This document shows positions 19,427-28,453 of a stretch of DNA of 64,000 bases, in pieces (position 1 is the first letter of the stretch; the number at the start of each line of letters is the position of its first letter). Made by a program: the position numbers and the translations under genes. The notes under the pieces were generated by a model. The model was not told the DNA's origin. It made no database searches and saw only the letters and a list, made by a program, of their open reading frames with translations. Origin of the DNA: Candidatus Woesearchaeota archaeon. Its GTDB lineage: Archaea; Nanobdellota; Nanobdellia; SCGC-AAA011-G17; JACPNG01. The stretch covers positions 5,253-69,252 of the forward strand of contig JACPNE010000002.1 in assembly GCA_016185615.1 (NCBI GenBank). Direction: 5' to 3'.

Positions 19427-20491
19427 TCAGAATTCATCAAGTTTCTTGATTGAGCTATAGTTTAATACAAGCGTTTTACCACCTTTATCCGAAATTGCAT
19501 TTTCTGCTGTTATAATATTATCTTCAACTAATTTGCTTATTTTTCTCTTAAATGTCTTATAAGAAATTTCATTGTCTTTTTTATAAATATCATAAATCTC
19601 AGTTATTGTTTTTCCAGAGTTTGATTTTATTAGTTTAAGTATATCATTAACATCATCTTCAAAATCATTTGTATTTTTAGTTTTATAATCATCTAATTTC
19701 TTAATTGCATTTTCTGAATGTTCCAAAATTATTTTTTTAGAAGACCCATCTTCAGCAATGTTTCCAGCTTCCCTTAATAAAAATAATCCAGCCCTTATAT
19801 CTCCTAATTCATAAGCTTTCTTGGCTATTAACTCAAATGCTTTTTGTTCCCATACATCTTTTACAAAACCATACTCAATTCTTTTTCTTAGTATTCCTTT
19901 TGTTTGCTCTAAATTATATGATTTAAACCCCAACTCTTCTAAGGTTAATCTTGATCTTAGTCTTGAATCTAAATTAATCAGCCAATCTTTATCGTTTGTT
20001 ATAAAAAAAACTGTTTTCTTATAAATATCTTCTAATATATAATAAATTCCATCTATTTCAGTTAATTTATCCGCTTCATCCATAACAAATACAGCTGTTT
20101 TTTTGTTTAGGATATTTTTTATTTCTTTGAAAAGCTCATCTGTTGTCTTGTTATGCACCCATTTGTAATCAATCTGCTCACAAATGCTTAAAGCCATTTT
20201 ATGTGTAGTGTCCTTTTTCCAGCAGTTTATGTATATTTTGTAAACTTCGTCATACTCCTCTAATTCATTCAAGACATGTTTCAAACAAACTGTTTTTCCA
20301 ACCCCTGGATTTCCGAATATAAGCAAATTCTTTCCATTCCTGTTTTGTAGTAATGGCCTAATACAAGAGGCAATATACCCTTGTTCTGACTCCCTATATG
20401 GAACCAATTTTGGCTGGAAATCAAAATCTAGTTGTTCTGGATTAAGAAATAATGACTCAGAATCCTTTAACATATCATCAAATAGTCCCAT
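19427..20491 (-). CDS. cdc6: Orc1/Cdc6 replication initiator
   Basis: Walker A 'GNPGVGKT', Walker B 'VFVMDEADKL', AAA+ lid and a C-terminal winged helix. Confidence 0.9.
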   Translation of the reverse strand: MGLFDDMLKDSESLFLNPEQLDFDFQPKLVPYRESEQGYIASCIRPLLQNRNGKNLLIFGNPGVGKTVCLKHVLNELEEYDEVYKIYINCWKKDTTHKMALSICEQIDYKWVHNKTTDELFKEIKNILNKKTAVFVMDEADKLTEIDGIYYILEDIYKKTVFFITNDKDWLINLDSRLRSRLTLEELGFKSYNLEQTKGILRKRIEYGFVKDVWEQKAFELIAKKAYELGDIRAGLFLLREAGNIAEDGSSKKIILEHSENAIKKLDDYKTKNTNDFEDDVNDILKLIKSNSGKTITEIYDIYKKDNEISYKTFKRKISKLVEDNIITAENAISDKGGKTLVLNYSSIKKLDEF

Positions 20492-22891: not shown

Positions 22892-22936
22892 AATAAAAGC
22901 ATATATGCATATTGAATAAAAGCATATATGCATATT
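22892..22936. repeat. Tandem 22-bp direct repeat, each unit containing the perfect palindrome GCATATATGC
   Basis: AATAAAAGCATATATGCATATT occurs at 22892-22913 and 22915-22936, 1 nt apart. Lies in the divergent intergenic region between the RDD gene and the wHTH membrane-protein gene. Confidence 0.85.
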
Positions 22937-23052
22937 AGTAATATTATATGTATAAAAACGAAATTCTTTTAAATAAAACAGCTATAATATTCTAATGTTT
23001 TTTAGGAGGAACTGTTTTCACACACTATATTATATTAGCATTAATTATATTT

Positions 23053-23946
23053 TTGCCTATAACAATGGGCAATGTAGAAGGAGCTACGTTAGATATAGAA
23101 TTTATCTTGAATAGTAATAAAGCACATCAAACATTATCTTATAATTTTTCAAAGCCAATAATCGATAATTCATTAGAATATACAATTGCTAGTGATATTG
23201 ATAGTGTCAACGTATTAGCTAATGGAAAAGAAGCTGATTTTGAAATAAGCCAAAATGAGGAAGTAAATACAATAAAAATAAATTCTTCAGAACCAATTAA
23301 CGATTTACAAATGTCTTTTAATGTAAATGATGTTATATTTAAGAATGGTAATACAAATCATTTTTTTACTGAATTATCTTTAAATAAAACAATTGTTTCT
23401 GACATTTCAGTAAAGGCAGTAATTCCCGCTGGCTATGGTTTATATGATAATTCATTTAAGCCGGAATCTGGAGCAATAACTAGTGATGGACAAAATGTTG
23501 TTGTTGAATGGGACGACGTAGATACAAGTAAACCATTACTTTTTTCTGTTAAATACAGAAAAGTAACTTTTCCAAGTTGGATTTTATGGACTTTAATAGT
23601 TTCATCTTTGACTATCTTAATAATATTGTTATATTTTCAATATCAACAAAAAACAGAGAAAGCAATGTTATACGGTTTTAGGGAAGATGAAAAGAAAGCC
23701 CTTGTATTCATTAAAACACATAAAAATATCTTACAAAAAGAGCTTCAAAATGAGTTTAAATTTTCACGTGCTAAATCTACAAGAATTGTAAAAAGATTAG
23801 AAGAAAAAGGATTGATAAAAAAAGAAGAATTTGGTAGAACAAATAAAATTATGTGGAGGGGGGAATTTTCTGAAAAAAAAGAGGATATAAAAGATCTTAA
23901 TGAAAAATTAAATCAAACATTCAATTTCTGGGAAAAATTAAAATAA
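23053..23946 (+). CDS. Membrane-tethered transcription regulator candidate: extracytoplasmic N-domain, one TM, cytoplasmic winged helix-turn-helix (COG2512-like architecture)
   Basis: TM 'WILWTLIVSSLTILIILLYF' followed by 'EDEKKALVFIKTHKNILQKELQNEFKFSRAKSTRIVKRLEEKGLIKKEEFGRTNKI' (MarR/wHTH-like). The start codon is uncertain (TTG 23053 or ATG 23065). Confidence 0.6.
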   Translation: MPITMGNVEGATLDIEFILNSNKAHQTLSYNFSKPIIDNSLEYTIASDIDSVNVLANGKEADFEISQNEEVNTIKINSSEPINDLQMSFNVNDVIFKNGNTNHFFTELSLNKTIVSDISVKAVIPAGYGLYDNSFKPESGAITSDGQNVVVEWDDVDTSKPLLFSVKYRKVTFPSWILWTLIVSSLTILIILLYFQYQQKTEKAMLYGFREDEKKALVFIKTHKNILQKELQNEFKFSRAKSTRIVKRLEEKGLIKKEEFGRTNKIMWRGEFSEKKEDIKDLNEKLNQTFNFWEKLK

Positions 23947-23982
23947 ATCAGCATTTAATCTGTTTTACTATTTGTTTTTGTT

Positions 23983-24046
23983 ATTGTTTCAAATTGTTTC
24001 AAAGCTGTTTCACATTGTTTCAAGAACAAATTAAGTATCTGAAACA
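23983..24046 (+). promoter_or_regulatory. Phased TGTTTCA x4 array, TATA-like AACAAATTAAGTA, then inverted TGAAACA; candidate operator/promoter of the 24137 gene
   Basis: TGTTTCA at 23985, 23995, 24006 and 24016 (10/11/10-bp spacing). TGAAACA at 24040-24046. The 3' 42 bp are repeated exactly at 26800-26841. Confidence 0.5.
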
Positions 24047-24136
24047 CTTTCTATTTTTGTCATAATGTTAGTGCGCACAATGTATCCTAGGCACATTGGT
24101 TGCACTAGATAGATAAGTATATTTGGGGGTGAAAGA

Positions 24137-26182
24137 ATGAAAAATGAAAAATATAAGCAAATAGCTGGTGCGCTGGTTGTTGTCTTTTTATTGTTAGCAG
24201 CACCTTTTGCTTTTGCTAATGGTTCTGGTGTAGATACATCTAGCATAAATGTAGATGTAAACACAGAATCGCAGTCAGAAGCAAGTGCTGAAGCAACTGG
24301 AGATGATTCTAGTGCGGAAGCAGACGCTAGTTCTGAATCGGGGGTTGAAGTAGATGCCAGTATTTCCGATGGTGATGAATCTAGTGTTGATGTAAAAGCA
24401 GATGCTAAATCTGAAGCAAATGCACAAGCAACTTCTGAAGTAGATGAAGATGATGATTGTGACACTGGATGCGATGATGAAGATACATCAAGTGAAGCTG
24501 AAGCAGAAGCAAGTGCTGAAGCAGAAGCAGAAGTAAGTGTTGAAACATCTTCCGGAACAAGTGATAACTGTGGTAACAAATGTAAACCTAAATGCGACAG
24601 TGATTGTGATGAAAACACATCTAATATAGAAGTAGAAGCAACAGCTGAAGCTGAGTCTGAAGCACAAGCAAGTACAACCTCATCAGGAGGATCTGGTGGT
24701 GGAAGCTGTAATGATTGTGACGAATGTGACACTGGATGCGATGATGAAGATACATCAAGTGCAGAAGCAGAAGCTAGCGCAGAAGCTGAAGCAGAGGTTG
24801 AAGTAGATAATAATAATGACTGTGGTAGTGAATGTGACGAAGATTCAACAATAAAAGCAGAAGCTAGCGCAGATGCAGAAGCTGAAGCAGAAGCAACTGG
24901 AGAAGGTAGTTCAGCATTTTCTAGTGCTGTAGCAAAAGCTGAAGCAACTGTTAATGTAGTCATTTCTGCATGTAATGAGATGATAGATGCAATAGTCAAA
25001 GCCGTTGCAGAAGCCCAAGCAAATGCACAAGCAACTTCTGAAGTAGATGAAGATGATGATTGTGACACTGGATGCGATGATGAAGATACATCAAGTGAAG
25101 CTGAAGCAGAAGCAAGTGCTGAAGCAAGTGCTGGATCATCATCTAATACAAATGACCACTGCGGAAGTAGATGCAAACCTAAGCCTAAATGTGGTACTGA
25201 ATGTAATAATACAGAAGACACATTAGGCGAGGCAAATGCTGAAGCAGAAGCTGAATCAGATGCTGAAGCAGAAGCAAAAGCTGAGTCTGAAGATGAGGGT
25301 GGTGCAGAAGCATTAGCTAATGCCGACGCAGAAGCTGAAGCTGAGGTTGAAGCTGAATTAGACAAAGCTTGTAATGAAGCTAAGGCTTACGCTAAATCTG
25401 TAGCTGAAGGTAGATCTGAGGCTATAACAAAAGTGTATGAACTTATAACTTCATTTGTAGAAGCTATGACTAAAGTATTCACTTCTGCTGAAGTAGATGG
25501 AGATGAATTAGGCATTGCTGTAGCAGAGGCTATGGCTAAAGCTTATGCAGAAGTTAATGTATTTGCTGACGCAGAAGCTGAAGCTTACGCTAAGGCTTTG
25601 AGTGAGGCTAGAGCAGAAGCTGAAGCAAAATGTGGGGAAGCTTCAGAAGCTAAGGCAAAAACTAACGCTAAAGCTAGTGCAGAAGCAAGAGCAGAAGCAG
25701 AAGCAAGAGCAGAAGCAAGTGCAGAAGCTCATGCCGAAGCTGAAGCTCATGCAGAAGCATGCATTGGATCAGATGAGTTATCTGATGCCGAAGCTCATGC
25801 AAAAGCTAGTGCTGAAGCTTCAGCTAGAGCATACGCACATGCAGTAGCATCTGCATTTGCTAGTGCAAGAGCAGAAGCATACGCTAAAGCAGTAGCTAGC
25901 AGTTCTGCTGGAGATGCAAGTGCTAAAGCAACAGCTGAGGCAAATGCTAAAGCCGCTGCAGAAGCTGCCGACAAAGCAGAAGCTGAAGCAGAAGCAAGTG
26001 CAGAAGCTGCCGCTAAAGCAAAAGCGCATGTAGAAGGACTTGGAAAAGCAGAAGCAGATGCTGAAGGTATTGCTCATGCTGAATCAGATGGTGAGGATGA
26101 AGCAAGCGTTGATTCAAACACATTAGCTGAAGACAATGGTGAAGCAGAAGCAGAAACTTTAGCAGAGGCTAGCTCAGAATAA
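24137..26182 (+). CDS. Secreted hyperacidic Ala/Glu-rich protein with Cys-cluster modules and (Ala-X)n tracts; function unknown
   Basis: GGGGGTGA SD 6 nt before the ATG. Signal peptide 'ALVVVFLLLAAPFAFANG'. 681-aa uninterrupted ORF with three 'CDTGCDDEDTSS' modules and C-x3-C clusters. Hairpin plus T-tract after the stop. Confidence 0.75.
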   Translation: MKNEKYKQIAGALVVVFLLLAAPFAFANGSGVDTSSINVDVNTESQSEASAEATGDDSSAEADASSESGVEVDASISDGDESSVDVKADAKSEANAQATSEVDEDDDCDTGCDDEDTSSEAEAEASAEAEAEVSVETSSGTSDNCGNKCKPKCDSDCDENTSNIEVEATAEAESEAQASTTSSGGSGGGSCNDCDECDTGCDDEDTSSAEAEASAEAEAEVEVDNNNDCGSECDEDSTIKAEASADAEAEAEATGEGSSAFSSAVAKAEATVNVVISACNEMIDAIVKAVAEAQANAQATSEVDEDDDCDTGCDDEDTSSEAEAEASAEASAGSSSNTNDHCGSRCKPKPKCGTECNNTEDTLGEANAEAEAESDAEAEAKAESEDEGGAEALANADAEAEAEVEAELDKACNEAKAYAKSVAEGRSEAITKVYELITSFVEAMTKVFTSAEVDGDELGIAVAEAMAKAYAEVNVFADAEAEAYAKALSEARAEAEAKCGEASEAKAKTNAKASAEARAEAEARAEASAEAHAEAEAHAEACIGSDELSDAEAHAKASAEASARAYAHAVASAFASARAEAYAKAVASSSAGDASAKATAEANAKAAAEAADKAEAEAEASAEAAAKAKAHVEGLGKAEADAEGIAHAESDGEDEASVDSNTLAEDNGEAEAETLAEASSE

Positions 26183-26210
26183 GCCCTTCTGGGCTTTCTT
26201 TTTTTATTTT
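26182..26210 (+). terminator. Hairpin (AGCCC-TTCT-GGGCT) followed by T-rich tract
   Basis: 5-bp GC-rich stem at 26182-26195, then TTTCTTTTTTTATTTT. Oligo-T is the usual archaeal termination signal. Confidence 0.5.
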
Positions 26211-26265
26211 TAAAAATTGATTTAGTAATATATTCAGATGATAAAAAAGAATCTATCGAGGAAAA

Positions 26266-26571
26266 ATGGGATCAAAATTAAAGTTCATGCTAATTACAAT
26301 ATTTGGATTAACTTCAGTACTAGGAGTTATATTTACGAGCTTATTGATCCATGAAGGAATTCATATCTTACAATTAGGAGAAGCAGAAAGCATTTGTTAT
26401 GACATGCAACAGGATACATTTATGCATGTCTCTCATGATTTAAACAAAGTATACAATGGAAAAATAATTTATAATGAGAATATAGGTTACTGGGAAAAAC
26501 AGGCAGTTATAGGGGAAAATATCTTTTTAGTGTTATTAAGTATGTTGATGGGTTTTATTTTAAGAAGATAA
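26266..26571 (+). CDS. Small two-TM membrane protein with HExxH motif
   Basis: 'LLIHEGIHILQ' lies directly after the first TM helix, and a second TM is at the C-terminus. 101 aa. Confidence 0.45.
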   Translation: MGSKLKFMLITIFGLTSVLGVIFTSLLIHEGIHILQLGEAESICYDMQQDTFMHVSHDLNKVYNGKIIYNENIGYWEKQAVIGENIFLVLLSMLMGFILRR

Positions 26572-26594
26572 AATAATGTGGGGGGGGTGTAACA

Positions 26595-26783
26595 ATGAAT
26601 AATCTAAGTAATTATTTAATCGAGATGAAGGGTGTTTCGAGTAGCTTGATAGAAGAGACAGATTTTTGTAGACAATATATACTTTCAAGAATTAGTAAAA
26701 TAATAACAAGTTCAACCCATACATCTATAGAAAAATTGAATCTTATCACACAATTTGAGGGGGGGTGTAGTTTTGCTAGATAA
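26595..26783 (+). CDS. Hypothetical 62-aa protein
   Basis: ATG preceded by a G8 tract plus TGTAACA (SD-like). No family recognised. Confidence 0.35.
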   Translation: MNNLSNYLIEMKGVSSSLIEETDFCRQYILSRISKIITSSTHTSIEKLNLITQFEGGCSFAR

Positions 26784-26799
26784 TATTACTAGAATATGA

Positions 26800-26841
26800 C
26801 TGTTTCACATTGTTTCAAGAACAAATTAAGTATCTGAAACA
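26800..26841 (+). promoter_or_regulatory. Second exact copy of the 42-bp TGTTTCA/TATA/TGAAACA element
   Basis: CTGTTTCACATTGTTTCAAGAACAAATTAAGTATCTGAAACA is identical to 24005-24046. In both copies ATAATG follows exactly 16 nt downstream. Confidence 0.55.
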
Positions 26842-26890
26842 GTCCTTATTCAAATTATAATGGGCACTATATCAACTGGGGGTGACAAAA

Positions 26891-28453
26891 ATGAAAATGA
26901 ACAAATTTAGTGCAATTATTTCAATATTAATTATTGTAGCTTTACCCTTAGTTATAGCACAAGGAGTAAATGATACAATAAATGATAGCTTGGGAAACAA
27001 CACAATGAATGAATTGAATAATATGAGCAACAATACACAGACATTAAATGATACAAGCACTTTAAACAATAATAGTAATGATACTTTCAACGATACCTTA
27101 GACGAAAGTGATGAAATATTGGAAGAAGATTTGATGAATGATTCGGAATTGGAAAATGATTCTGATAATGAAAGTGTACAAACTATGGATGAGGAAGTAA
27201 CTTCAACAAATTTAGGATTCCGTCAATTAGGAGAAGCATTAAATGATTTTATGTTTAATCTTCAATCAGCTTTTACATTTAGGGAAGAATCAAAATTGGA
27301 GTTACTTCAGGATAGGGTAGAAGAATTAAGAGTACGTCAACAAGAATGGGTTGAATTAAAACAACAAGCATTAATTAAATTTGATAGTGAGGAATCTGAC
27401 GCAGAGGAGAAACAGGATGTTTTAGATAGACTTAAAGAAAAACATAATGACATAATAAAAGATTATGTTGAAGTCATCTATGATTTAAATACAATTAAGG
27501 TTGAAGCAAGGGAAGATGGAGAAATAGATATAGAACAAAGAGCAAATAATTTCGCATTAGGAATAGAAGATTCTGATCTTTCACTTGGATTAAATACTAA
27601 TAGTGAAGCTGATTTAGCAGAAGAGATAGATAATGAATCAACAAGTGAAACTAGTGTTTCTGCTCAAGAGGCTATAGAAATTGCTGAAGATGAGTTTGAT
27701 TTTGATGCAACTAGCGTTACTGAAAGGGAGATGAATGGTCGATTAGTTTATCTCGTTGAAGGAACCAGAAGTGATACCTTTGGAACAACAGAATTAGATG
27801 GAATATATCAAGTATTAATTGATGCAAATACTGGAATTATCTCGTCTGTCAATATTAATATAGATATAGCATCAGGAGAGACTATAGAAAATGATTCATT
27901 AGGCATTGATAATCAAACAGCCAGTAATCAAACAACTAATCAAACAACTGGTAATCAGTCTATTGGTAATCAATCCAGAACAATGAATGAATCAAGAACA
28001 AATAGAACTGATAACAGAACTGAAGCTGGGGGGGAGGTAGAAGAAGACATTGAAATTAGAATTAATGGAAATATCAACTTTTCAGAAGAAGATGAAGAAA
28101 TGCTTAGGGATTTAGTTGAAGATTTTATAGAGTCAACTAATGAGGCAAAAATTGCAATAGAGGTTGATAAAGATGGGGGAGCAATTTCAATTGCAAGCAG
28201 TATAGCTGGAGATTTAACCTCTGAACAAGAGGGGAGATGGGATGAGATACAAGAAGAGATAAGATCATTAGTGAGTGAATTTTCAAGTGTCCAACTTAGG
28301 ATAGAAGCAGAGAGAGAATTTAGTGGAGAGTCTAACCAAACTAGTTCAAGCAGAGCAAGTGCTAGTGCCAGAAGTGAAAGTGAGAATGAAACTGCTAATG
28401 CTAGAGCAAGGAGTGAAGCTAGAAGTGAAAGCAGTTCAAGTAGTGACTATTAA
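26891..28453 (+). CDS. Secreted PepSY-domain protein with two N-glycosylation-sequon-rich linkers and a Ser/Ala/Arg/Glu low-complexity tail
   Basis: SD GGGGGTGA precedes the ATG at 26891, so the track GTG at 26882 is less likely. Signal peptide 'FSAIISILIIVALPLVIAQG'. PepSY-like 'SAQEAIEIAEDEF...MNGRLVYLVEG...YQVLIDANTGIISSV'. Confidence 0.65.
   Translation: MKMNKFSAIISILIIVALPLVIAQGVNDTINDSLGNNTMNELNNMSNNTQTLNDTSTLNNNSNDTFNDTLDESDEILEEDLMNDSELENDSDNESVQTMDEEVTSTNLGFRQLGEALNDFMFNLQSAFTFREESKLELLQDRVEELRVRQQEWVELKQQALIKFDSEESDAEEKQDVLDRLKEKHNDIIKDYVEVIYDLNTIKVEAREDGEIDIEQRANNFALGIEDSDLSLGLNTNSEADLAEEIDNESTSETSVSAQEAIEIAEDEFDFDATSVTEREMNGRLVYLVEGTRSDTFGTTELDGIYQVLIDANTGIISSVNINIDIASGETIENDSLGIDNQTASNQTTNQTTGNQSIGNQSRTMNESRTNRTDNRTEAGGEVEEDIEIRINGNINFSEEDEEMLRDLVEDFIESTNEAKIAIEVDKDGGAISIASSIAGDLTSEQEGRWDEIQEEIRSLVSEFSSVQLRIEAEREFSGESNQTSSSRASASARSESENETANARARSEARSESSSSSDY

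Follow-up and report, generated by a model that had tools for sequence, protein, structure and literature searches.

Introduction

ToxR, CadC and TcpP are single-pass proteins that combine an extracytoplasmic sensor with a winged helix and bind direct repeats in a promoter beside their own gene. The candidate regulator described here is encoded in a 64-kb stretch of DNA from a Candidatus Woesearchaeota archaeon, analysed at its full length and referred to below as the window. It is like these bacterial proteins in its single-pass design of sensor and winged helix-turn-helix (wHTH), but the resemblance is functional only and does not reflect homology. The topology is opposite, with an N-terminal ectodomain and a C-terminal wHTH, so that the order seen in the ToxR/CadC family (N-terminal cytoplasmic OmpR-type wHTH, transmembrane (TM) segment, C-terminal periplasmic domain) is not found. 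The wHTH itself is of the MarR/Lrs14/DUF7343 type instead of the OmpR type, and the promoter is an archaeal TBP/TFB promoter.

GvpE is a soluble, leucine-zipper-like protein that is unrelated to the window regulator. The GvpE UAS of haloarchaeal gas-vesicle promoters is an activator site made up of direct repeats, TGAAACGG-n4-TGAACCAA, which abut the BRE at a spacing that cannot be altered (PMC2241852). Its TGAAAC core resembles the box of the window element, but the UAS has a 12-bp period, has no inverted box downstream of the TATA box, and carries its boxes on the opposite strand.

The ArnR proteins have C-terminal TM segments and no large ectodomain. ArnR and ArnR1 of Sulfolobus acidocaldarius are summarised as membrane-bound transcription factors (TFs) with an N-terminal HTH (PMC6396743 as cited in PMC13286277). 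According to that account they are, like the window regulator, archaeal and membrane-anchored, and they control genes for cell-surface structures, as the window regulator is predicted to do. They are, however, crenarchaeal proteins with different sites, and the window regulator is set apart from them by the architecture given for them in PMC13286277. The best sequence similarity of the window DNA-binding domain is to the Lrs14/Sta1/MarR-type regulators, to which it appears to be only distantly related, and the window protein shares their extra C-terminal helix. Those proteins are small and soluble, whereas the window protein is fused to a TM helix and an ectodomain of 170 aa.

In the literature searched on DUF7343, on DUF2207 in archaea, and on membrane-bound TFs of DPANN archaea, neither the regulator family nor the motif was found to be described. 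Conserved in DPANN archaea and beyond, this is an uncharacterised regulator family whose putative operator lies on both sides of the TATA box. To our knowledge, almost nothing has been learnt of gene regulation in DPANN archaea, because very few have been grown in culture. The locus offers a concrete and testable triplet of regulator, operator and targets, comprising a 7-bp box, a strict spacing, a predicted transcription start site (TSS) and secreted-protein genes, with a conservation that reaches from Woesearchaeota to Hydrothermarchaeota. Half-sites placed symmetrically around a TATA box and read by a membrane-anchored factor would be an unusual promoter design, and one open to study with the archaeal in vitro transcription systems already available.

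A 42 bp Direct Repeat

The window has a GC content of about 30%, is archaeal, and carries an Orc1/Cdc6 gene at 19427–20491. The first-pass annotation had described an exact 42-bp duplicate whose flanks diverge immediately upstream and, for 15 nt, downstream, ahead of a shared ATAATG, and each of these observations was reproduced. The 42-mer, CTGTTTCACATTGTTTCAAGAACAAATTAAGTATCTGAAACA, occurs at 24005–24046 (copy 1) and 26800–26841 (copy 2), base for base and with 0 mismatches across the 64-kb window. The upstream flanks of the two copies are unrelated from the first base, while downstream 6 of 15 nt agree before ATAATG is reached in both (Table 1). Together with this downstream stretch the copies span 63 nt, with 86% identity. 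A third copy is absent from the window at up to 3 mismatches, the weaker matches at this threshold being register shifts of the two known copies. The 42-mer was matched in 0/100 shuffles of the window, and no match is expected by chance.

The copies have the same orientation and stand 2795 bp from each other, with a GC content of 0.42 in the segment between them. Further direct TGTTTCA boxes are found upstream of copy 1 only (23985–23991 and 23995–24001), bringing its total to four direct boxes (10/11/10 bp spacing) and one inverted box. Logan contigs (k = 31) from four independent samples (SRR12113383, SRR12113422, SRR12113429 and SRR12113433) break within the 42-mer: contig L283, which was read, ends about 31 nt into copy 1, and L286 and L287 start, as judged from coordinates, with about the last 30 nt of copy 2. 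An exact repeat longer than k behaves in this way, and its occurrence in four samples indicates that the repeat is real in the population and not an assembly artefact.

Table 1. Positions of the features discussed in the text (window numbering).
Feature	Position	Strand	Remarks
Candidate cognate regulator	23053–23946	+	Ectodomain, one TM helix, C-terminal DUF7343 winged helix (MarR/Lrs14-like)
Two extra direct TGTTTCA boxes	23985–24001	+	In 10–11 bp register with boxes 1 and 2
Copy 1, putative promoter-operator	24005–24046	+	Exact repeat; architecture kept in about 50 elements of other archaea
Copy 1, box 1	24006–24012
Copy 1, box 2	24016–24022
Copy 1, BRE-like	24023–24028		AGAACA
Copy 1, TATA-like	24029–24036		AATTAAGT
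Copy 1, box 3	24040–24046		Inverted (TGAAACA)
Predicted start region, copy 1	24058–24067	+	ATAATG 24062–24067; 5′UTR about 75 nt; SD GGGGGTGA 24125–24132
Candidate target 1, 681-aa secreted protein	24137–26182	+	Signal peptide, acidic Ala/Glu repeats, Cys-rich motifs
Two small ORFs	26266–26783	+	101-aa membrane protein (26266–26571); 62-aa ORF (26595–26783)
Copy 2, putative promoter-operator	26800–26841	+	Exact repeat; no counterpart in the syntenic locus L125
Copy 2, box 1	26801–26807
Copy 2, box 2	26811–26817
Copy 2, BRE/TATA-like	26818–26834
Copy 2, box 3	26835–26841
Predicted start region, copy 2	26853–26862	+	ATAATG 26857–26862; 5′UTR about 34 nt; SD GGGGGTGA 26878–26885
Candidate target 2, 520-aa secreted PepSY-domain protein	26891–28453	+	Signal peptide; Pfam PepSY, E 1.1e-7

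The Candidate Regulator Gene

The stop codon of the regulator ORF lies 58 nt before copy 1. The ORF is 100% identical to a deposited protein (P0001, Candidatus Woesearchaeota archaeon), which carries the NCBI name 'MarR family transcriptional regulator' and is 293 aa long from a start at ATG 23065. Residues 212–267 match Pfam DUF7343 (PF24034; 34.8 bits against a gathering cut-off of 27.6, E 1.5e-8), and MarR is also matched; PF24034 was found in all 31 homologues. Among the NCBIfam models, Sta1 (1.9e-6) and Lrs14 (3.3e-6) match the DNA-binding domain, both below their family cut-offs, and a sequence search of the PDB gave a single marginal match, to the Lrs14-like entry 6cmv (E 0.009).

An AlphaFold2 model built from the 31-member alignment (pLDDT 92) is laid out as a beta-sandwich (7–166), a TM helix (171–202), the wHTH (207–264) and a C-terminal helix (270–292). 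According to Foldseek, folds similar to that of the ectodomain occur in M1 aminopeptidase/LTA4H (N-domain) and in Ost1. Two segments hardly vary in the family alignment, namely the recognition helix (FSRAK[SAM]TRI) and the wing (GRTNK). Nearly all homologues have a signal peptide at the N-terminus, and basic residues follow the TM helix, so that the ectodomain would be extracellular and the wHTH cytoplasmic. When 1.84 billion cluster representatives (50% identity) were searched with a profile, 164 clusters matched at E ≤ 1e-30, with near-full-length alignment in most among the 150 matches listed.

The 5′ end of the window gene is atypical. A strong AGGAGG at 23004 is followed, up to 23067, by in-frame codons resembling a signal peptide (VFTHYIILALIIFLPIT), with no ATG, GTG or TTG among them, and the deposited protein, beginning at ATG 23065, is without the signal peptide that nearly all homologues possess. 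The start codon may be an unusual one or may have been damaged, or the sequence may contain an error; the protein may be altered at its N-terminus or may begin at an unusual codon.

The promoter region of the regulator gene contains an exact 18-nt tandem duplicate, AAAGCATATATGCATATT (22896–22913 and 22919–22936), with the palindrome GCATATATGC inside it; there is no further exact copy in the window. It may be the operator of a different factor that controls the regulator. At the other end of the gene, T-runs at 23963–23966 and 23975–23979 lie between the regulator gene and the element, and may stop the regulator transcript ahead of it.

Conservation of the Element and Its Association with the Regulator

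The conserved architecture is TGTTTCA-N3/4-TGTTTCA-N17-TGAAACA. Boxes 1 and 2 have a period of 10 or 11 bp, and the spacer between boxes 2 and 3 is always 17 nt. Among the matches listed in variable-gap scans of genome contigs, chance bacterial ones prevailed; the first archaeal matches came from such a scan, and a clean set was obtained with a fixed-gap pattern, TGTTTCANNTTGTTTCAN17TGAAACA, run on one genome per species (185,579 species). This motif-first scan gave 20 loci, of which 11 are archaeal-type and nine are from Mucilaginibacter. The contig titles of the archaeal-type loci are Woesearchaeota, Aenigmatarchaeota, 'uncultured archaeon', some 'Methanosarcinales' TPA bins, and one small 'Saccharibacteria' contig. 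Beside the element, 9/11 of them have a homologous regulator ORF (258–347 aa, with a signal peptide) sharing the C-terminus ...KLE.KGL..KE..GRTNK..W. The regulator ends just upstream of the element in eight of the nine and is divergent in L049, and in these loci a signal-peptide gene starts 28–90 nt downstream of the element.

The Mucilaginibacter matches (L031, L034, L059, L065, L085, L096, L116, L120 and L123) belong to a multi-copy repeat of three or four direct TGTTTCA boxes and GTGAAACA. The copies are very alike within a genome and are not accompanied by a DUF7343 regulator. With its different layout and the lack of a regulator gene, this repeat was set aside as unrelated.

A regulator-first scan with the regulator alignment, again of one genome per species, gave 54 loci with 48 full-length relatives. 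The 46 usable loci, each with at least 120 nt after the gene, span Woese-, Aenigm-, Iain-, Nano- and Hydrothermarchaeota. An element was counted where GTTTCA-N4/5-GTTTCA-N17-TGAAAC occurred on the same strand with up to 2 mismatches in the 18 box bases. In 39/46 loci one was found 0–700 nt past the end of the matched gene, mostly within 100 nt, and several elements begin just 2–15 nt past the regulator stop codon. Four further loci have an element nearby or divergent, and 3/46 have none within the available sequence, which in one of them is just 190 nt after the gene. The set includes near-duplicate genomes (L134/L135, L139/L170 and L150/L161), so these counts are slightly inflated. At up to 1 mismatch there were 51 matches in 544 kb, compared with about 0.005 expected from a uniform-base estimate. 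In Hydrothermarchaeota the element directly follows the gene even though the regulator is only 24–26% identical. Two to three copies of the element near the regulator gene are also seen in L134, L157 and L023.

Both scans, and the Hydrothermarchaeota loci, display the conserved co-occurrence expected of a local TF-operator pair, and on this comparative evidence the two would form such a pair. The first-pass annotation had postulated a shared cis-regulatory module; in agreement with this, the same boxes stand before secreted-protein genes in dozens of distant archaeal genomes, next to genes of one TF family.

Putative TATA Box and Predicted Transcription Start

In 22 elements from genomes with at least 44% GC, positions 1–2 and 16–17 of the spacer between boxes 2 and 3 are G/C and positions 7–12 are 82–95% A/T. 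A second A/T patch follows box 3, at +3 to +10. Examples from relatives are cGAAAgATTAAAATA and cGAAgtTTTCTAATA, the window spacer being aGAACaAATTAAGT; typical spacers (cGAAAgATTAAAATAcg, cGAAgtTTTCTAATAgg and aGGAgtTTATAATAcgg) consist of a BRE-like purine stretch and then a TATA box. This is the form of an archaeal BRE/TATA core, with an A/T core of about 8 bp in a fixed place and a purine BRE before it. Boxes 2 and 3, which are inverted, have their dyad axis at this core.

In at least 12 loci an ATG occurs 15–28 nt after box 3, either preceded by an SD (GGTGAT at +15 to +21) or leaderless (L134 and L143). If the TATA box came after box 3, the TSS of these short-leader loci would fall within the gene, and the spacer core is therefore taken as the TATA box; given this, the downstream A/T patch corresponds to a promoter-proximal element. 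The TATA box had earlier been placed tentatively at AAATTAAGTA, and an A/T-rich core is indeed fixed at that spacer position even at 44–62% GC. The window core, AATTAAGT, is an imperfect TATA-like sequence.

The position of the ATG in these relatives suggests a TSS about 13–16 nt after box 3, 27–28 nt from the centre of the spacer A/T core, which agrees with the canonical archaeal distance of about 25–28 nt between TATA centre and TSS. Applied to the window, the geometry of the relatives predicts starts at 24058–24062 and 26853–26857, at or near the ATAATG where the first-pass annotation had expected transcription to begin. Counted from the predicted TSS, boxes 1 and 2 cover −56 to −40, and box 3 covers about −22 to −16.

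Candidate Target Genes

The 681-aa protein encoded after copy 1 has no Pfam match. Its gene contains a 132-nt internal repeat (24392–24523 and 24995–25126, 94% identity) and recurring Cys-rich motifs (CDTGCDDEDTSS). The two small ORFs that follow have no family matches and no homologues in the related loci, and may belong to the first transcription unit.

The gene after copy 2 can be placed in a wider context. By BLASTP, the window PepSY protein matches the genes that follow the element in L141, L132, L131, L157, L127, L145 and L134/L135 (E 4e-38 to 2e-15), and a PepSY homologue is found a few kb downstream of the regulator gene in 17/48 loci, most of them within 1.5 kb. Most of 50 elements have a signal-peptide ORF within about 160 nt. 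All-against-all BLASTP joined 28 of the downstream proteins into one cluster. By eye, some of its members are PepSY-type and share the conserved segment LG.RQ.GE.F.DFVF...LTFD..AKL.LL, and others belong to a family about 270 aa long that has GxGxAIS.SDP.DF together with Cys-rich repeats. DUF5667 proteins and small Zn-ribbon proteins make up smaller groups. A PepSY-type gene thus appears to be the usual target of the element. A regulon of the two downstream genes had been suggested from the window; in its favour, other genomes carry an ortholog of the window PepSY gene behind the element. The predicted targets are surface or secreted proteins, which makes the system a candidate for the control of host interaction.

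The element could be a real promoter-operator that is bound by some other factor, the membrane winged-helix protein being merely a conserved neighbour. The link between regulator and operator is drawn from genomic association, which is not binding; the regulator's own promoter region has a different duplicated palindrome (22896–22936), and the three loci lacking an element in the available sequence fit such a reading. It is nonetheless considered unlikely, since the short distance of 2–15 nt between the regulator stop codon and the element recurs in many loci of several phyla, and the element stays when the downstream family changes (PepSY-type, GxGxAIS, DUF5667 or Zn-ribbon). The invariant boxes also parallel a nearly invariant recognition helix and wing. 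Loci that have only the wHTH in common with the family (L173–L178) show no box array in the first 230 nt past the gene.

Origin of the Second Copy

The woesearchaeotal locus L125, with a regulator 44% identical to that of the window, is syntenic: regulator, element, a 613-aa acidic AE-rich secreted protein, a 222-aa protein and a 462-aa PepSY-type protein. The 613-aa protein is weakly similar to the 681-aa protein of the window and occupies the same syntenic place. There are no boxes before the PepSY-type gene of L125, so copy 2 of the window is specific to its lineage. Within L125 (6058–6615) the element lies about 415 nt from the AE-rich gene, and an unannotated ORF of 163–185 aa in this stretch begins at the predicted TSS.

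According to the family position matrix, two independent functional elements share about 26/42 positions, and the probability of 42/42 is about 4e-11. Paralogous copies elsewhere (three in L134 and two in L157) differ in the spacer. Complete identity therefore needs recent copying, and copy 2 probably reflects a lineage-specific promoter duplication or gene conversion. Selection and very recent duplication had been offered as alternative reasons for the identity, and both apply: the boxes, their spacing and the TATA box are under selection, while the identity of unconstrained positions is due to recent copying. In L023, where the regulator is only 30% identical, the element is identical at 39/42 positions. 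The window element departs little from the family consensus, and more of its positions may be under selection than the matrix would indicate.

Recent copying, together with the single element of L125, would also be expected if copy 2 were a neutral duplication of 42 bp with no function of its own. This is very improbable, because the copied piece coincides exactly with a single promoter unit (about −57 to −16 relative to the predicted TSS), has been placed 50 nt before the ATG of a gene that is the usual target elsewhere, and has an architecture conserved across phyla.

It is more doubtful still that the element acts as RNA, either as a hairpin terminator of the regulator gene or as a structure in the 5′UTR. 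Boxes 2 and 3 could form a 7-bp stem with a 17-nt loop, but the sequence folds no better than its shuffles (z −0.7, −0.95 and −0.2) and has no Rfam match at the element. Box 1 and the extra boxes are conserved direct repeats that are unable to pair, and what is conserved in the loop is an A/T core at a set position. The predicted TSS comes after the element, and no compensatory stem changes were seen among the relatives, in which the boxes are invariant. The search for known RNA families gave only a sub-threshold match to isrG (36.5 bits against 100) at 25779–26018, in the coding region of the AE repeats, which is regarded as spurious.

A MITE-like mobile element, or attL/attR sites around a 2.8-kb insertion carrying the AE-rich gene, could explain direct repeats 2795 bp apart with a higher GC (0.42) between them and an internal inverted repeat, but is the least credible reading, as there are just two copies in 64 kb and not the many copies with target-site duplications or terminal inverted repeats that the first-pass annotation had named as the mark of such an element, no target-site duplication directly flanks either copy, the ORFs at 24047–26799 include no integrase, transposase or recombinase, the GC is accounted for by the GCN/GAR codons of the Ala/Glu repeats, the AE-rich gene of L125 has the same syntenic place with a single element, and in other genomes the element keeps to one place, behind members of a single gene family. 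Reading the element as a replication-origin (ORB) sequence because of the nearby orc1/cdc6 gene was rejected, since it tracks the regulator gene across genomes.

Proposed Mechanism

From these comparisons, each 42-mer probably joins a complete archaeal core promoter to an operator, the latter most likely bound by the adjacent membrane regulator, and the two copies would serve a local secreted-protein regulon. The promoter/operator reading put forward from the window sequence is supported by the conserved geometry and gene linkage. In such a promoter, two direct TGTTTCA boxes one helical turn apart would abut the BRE-like purine stretch, and the TATA box would sit on the dyad axis between box 2 and the inverted TGAAACA box. 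The boxes would be occupied by the wHTH of a single-pass membrane protein with its ectodomain facing outwards, making it a one-component sensor-regulator. Direct boxes one turn apart present a single face of the DNA, which fits proteins whose only access to the DNA is from the side of the membrane. The inverted boxes are 24 bp apart, too wide for a classical MarR dimer.

With regulator on both sides of the TATA box, the assembly of TBP, TFB and RNA polymerase could be controlled directly. A box between TATA and TSS is typical of archaeal repressors, and boxes upstream of the BRE are typical of activators; the GvpE UAS, with its direct repeats set against the BRE, is a published case of the latter (PMC2241852). 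The best guess is recruitment through the direct repeats that abut the BRE, with box 3 leading to clamping or to (concentration-dependent) repression, and the arrangement leans slightly towards activation through boxes 1 and 2. The acidic AE-repeat protein would thereby be co-regulated with the PepSY protein in a small local regulon. A role of the neighbouring S49 peptidase/RDD genes in regulated intramembrane proteolysis was also considered and was rejected, these neighbours being conserved in 0/48 related loci.

A broader interpretation can be put forward tentatively, namely that this is an undescribed system, widespread in DPANN archaea, in which a membrane-tethered wHTH sensor, using half-sites symmetric around TATA, acts on a TBP-bent promoter and so couples an extracellular cue to the production of secreted or surface proteins. 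Were this so, the placement of the regulator gene beside its operator might solve the problem of target-finding for a membrane-bound protein, and genome-reduced episymbionts would have a means of sensing the state of their envelope or contact with the host.

Leaders and Upstream ORFs

Unusually long G-rich, SD-like motifs precede several ORFs of the window: GGGGGTGA and GGGGGGGGTG (26578–26587), with sites at 24125–24132, 26761–26769 and 26878–26885. They suggest that these ORFs are translated from leadered mRNAs. The ATG of each ATAATG at the predicted TSS opens a tiny ORF, of 15 codons at 24065–24112 and 16 codons at 26860–26910, and the two peptides are unrelated; these could be leaderless upstream ORFs or a coincidence.

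The two 5′UTRs of the window show no significant fold. In six relatives (L126, L127, L131, L134, L145 and L157) a stable, GC-rich hairpin is found in the 5′UTR of the target gene soon after the predicted TSS, with z scores of −2.3 to −4.3 against shuffles, and several of these are followed by a T-run. In some members of the family such a hairpin could serve as a leader attenuator or have a stabilising role.
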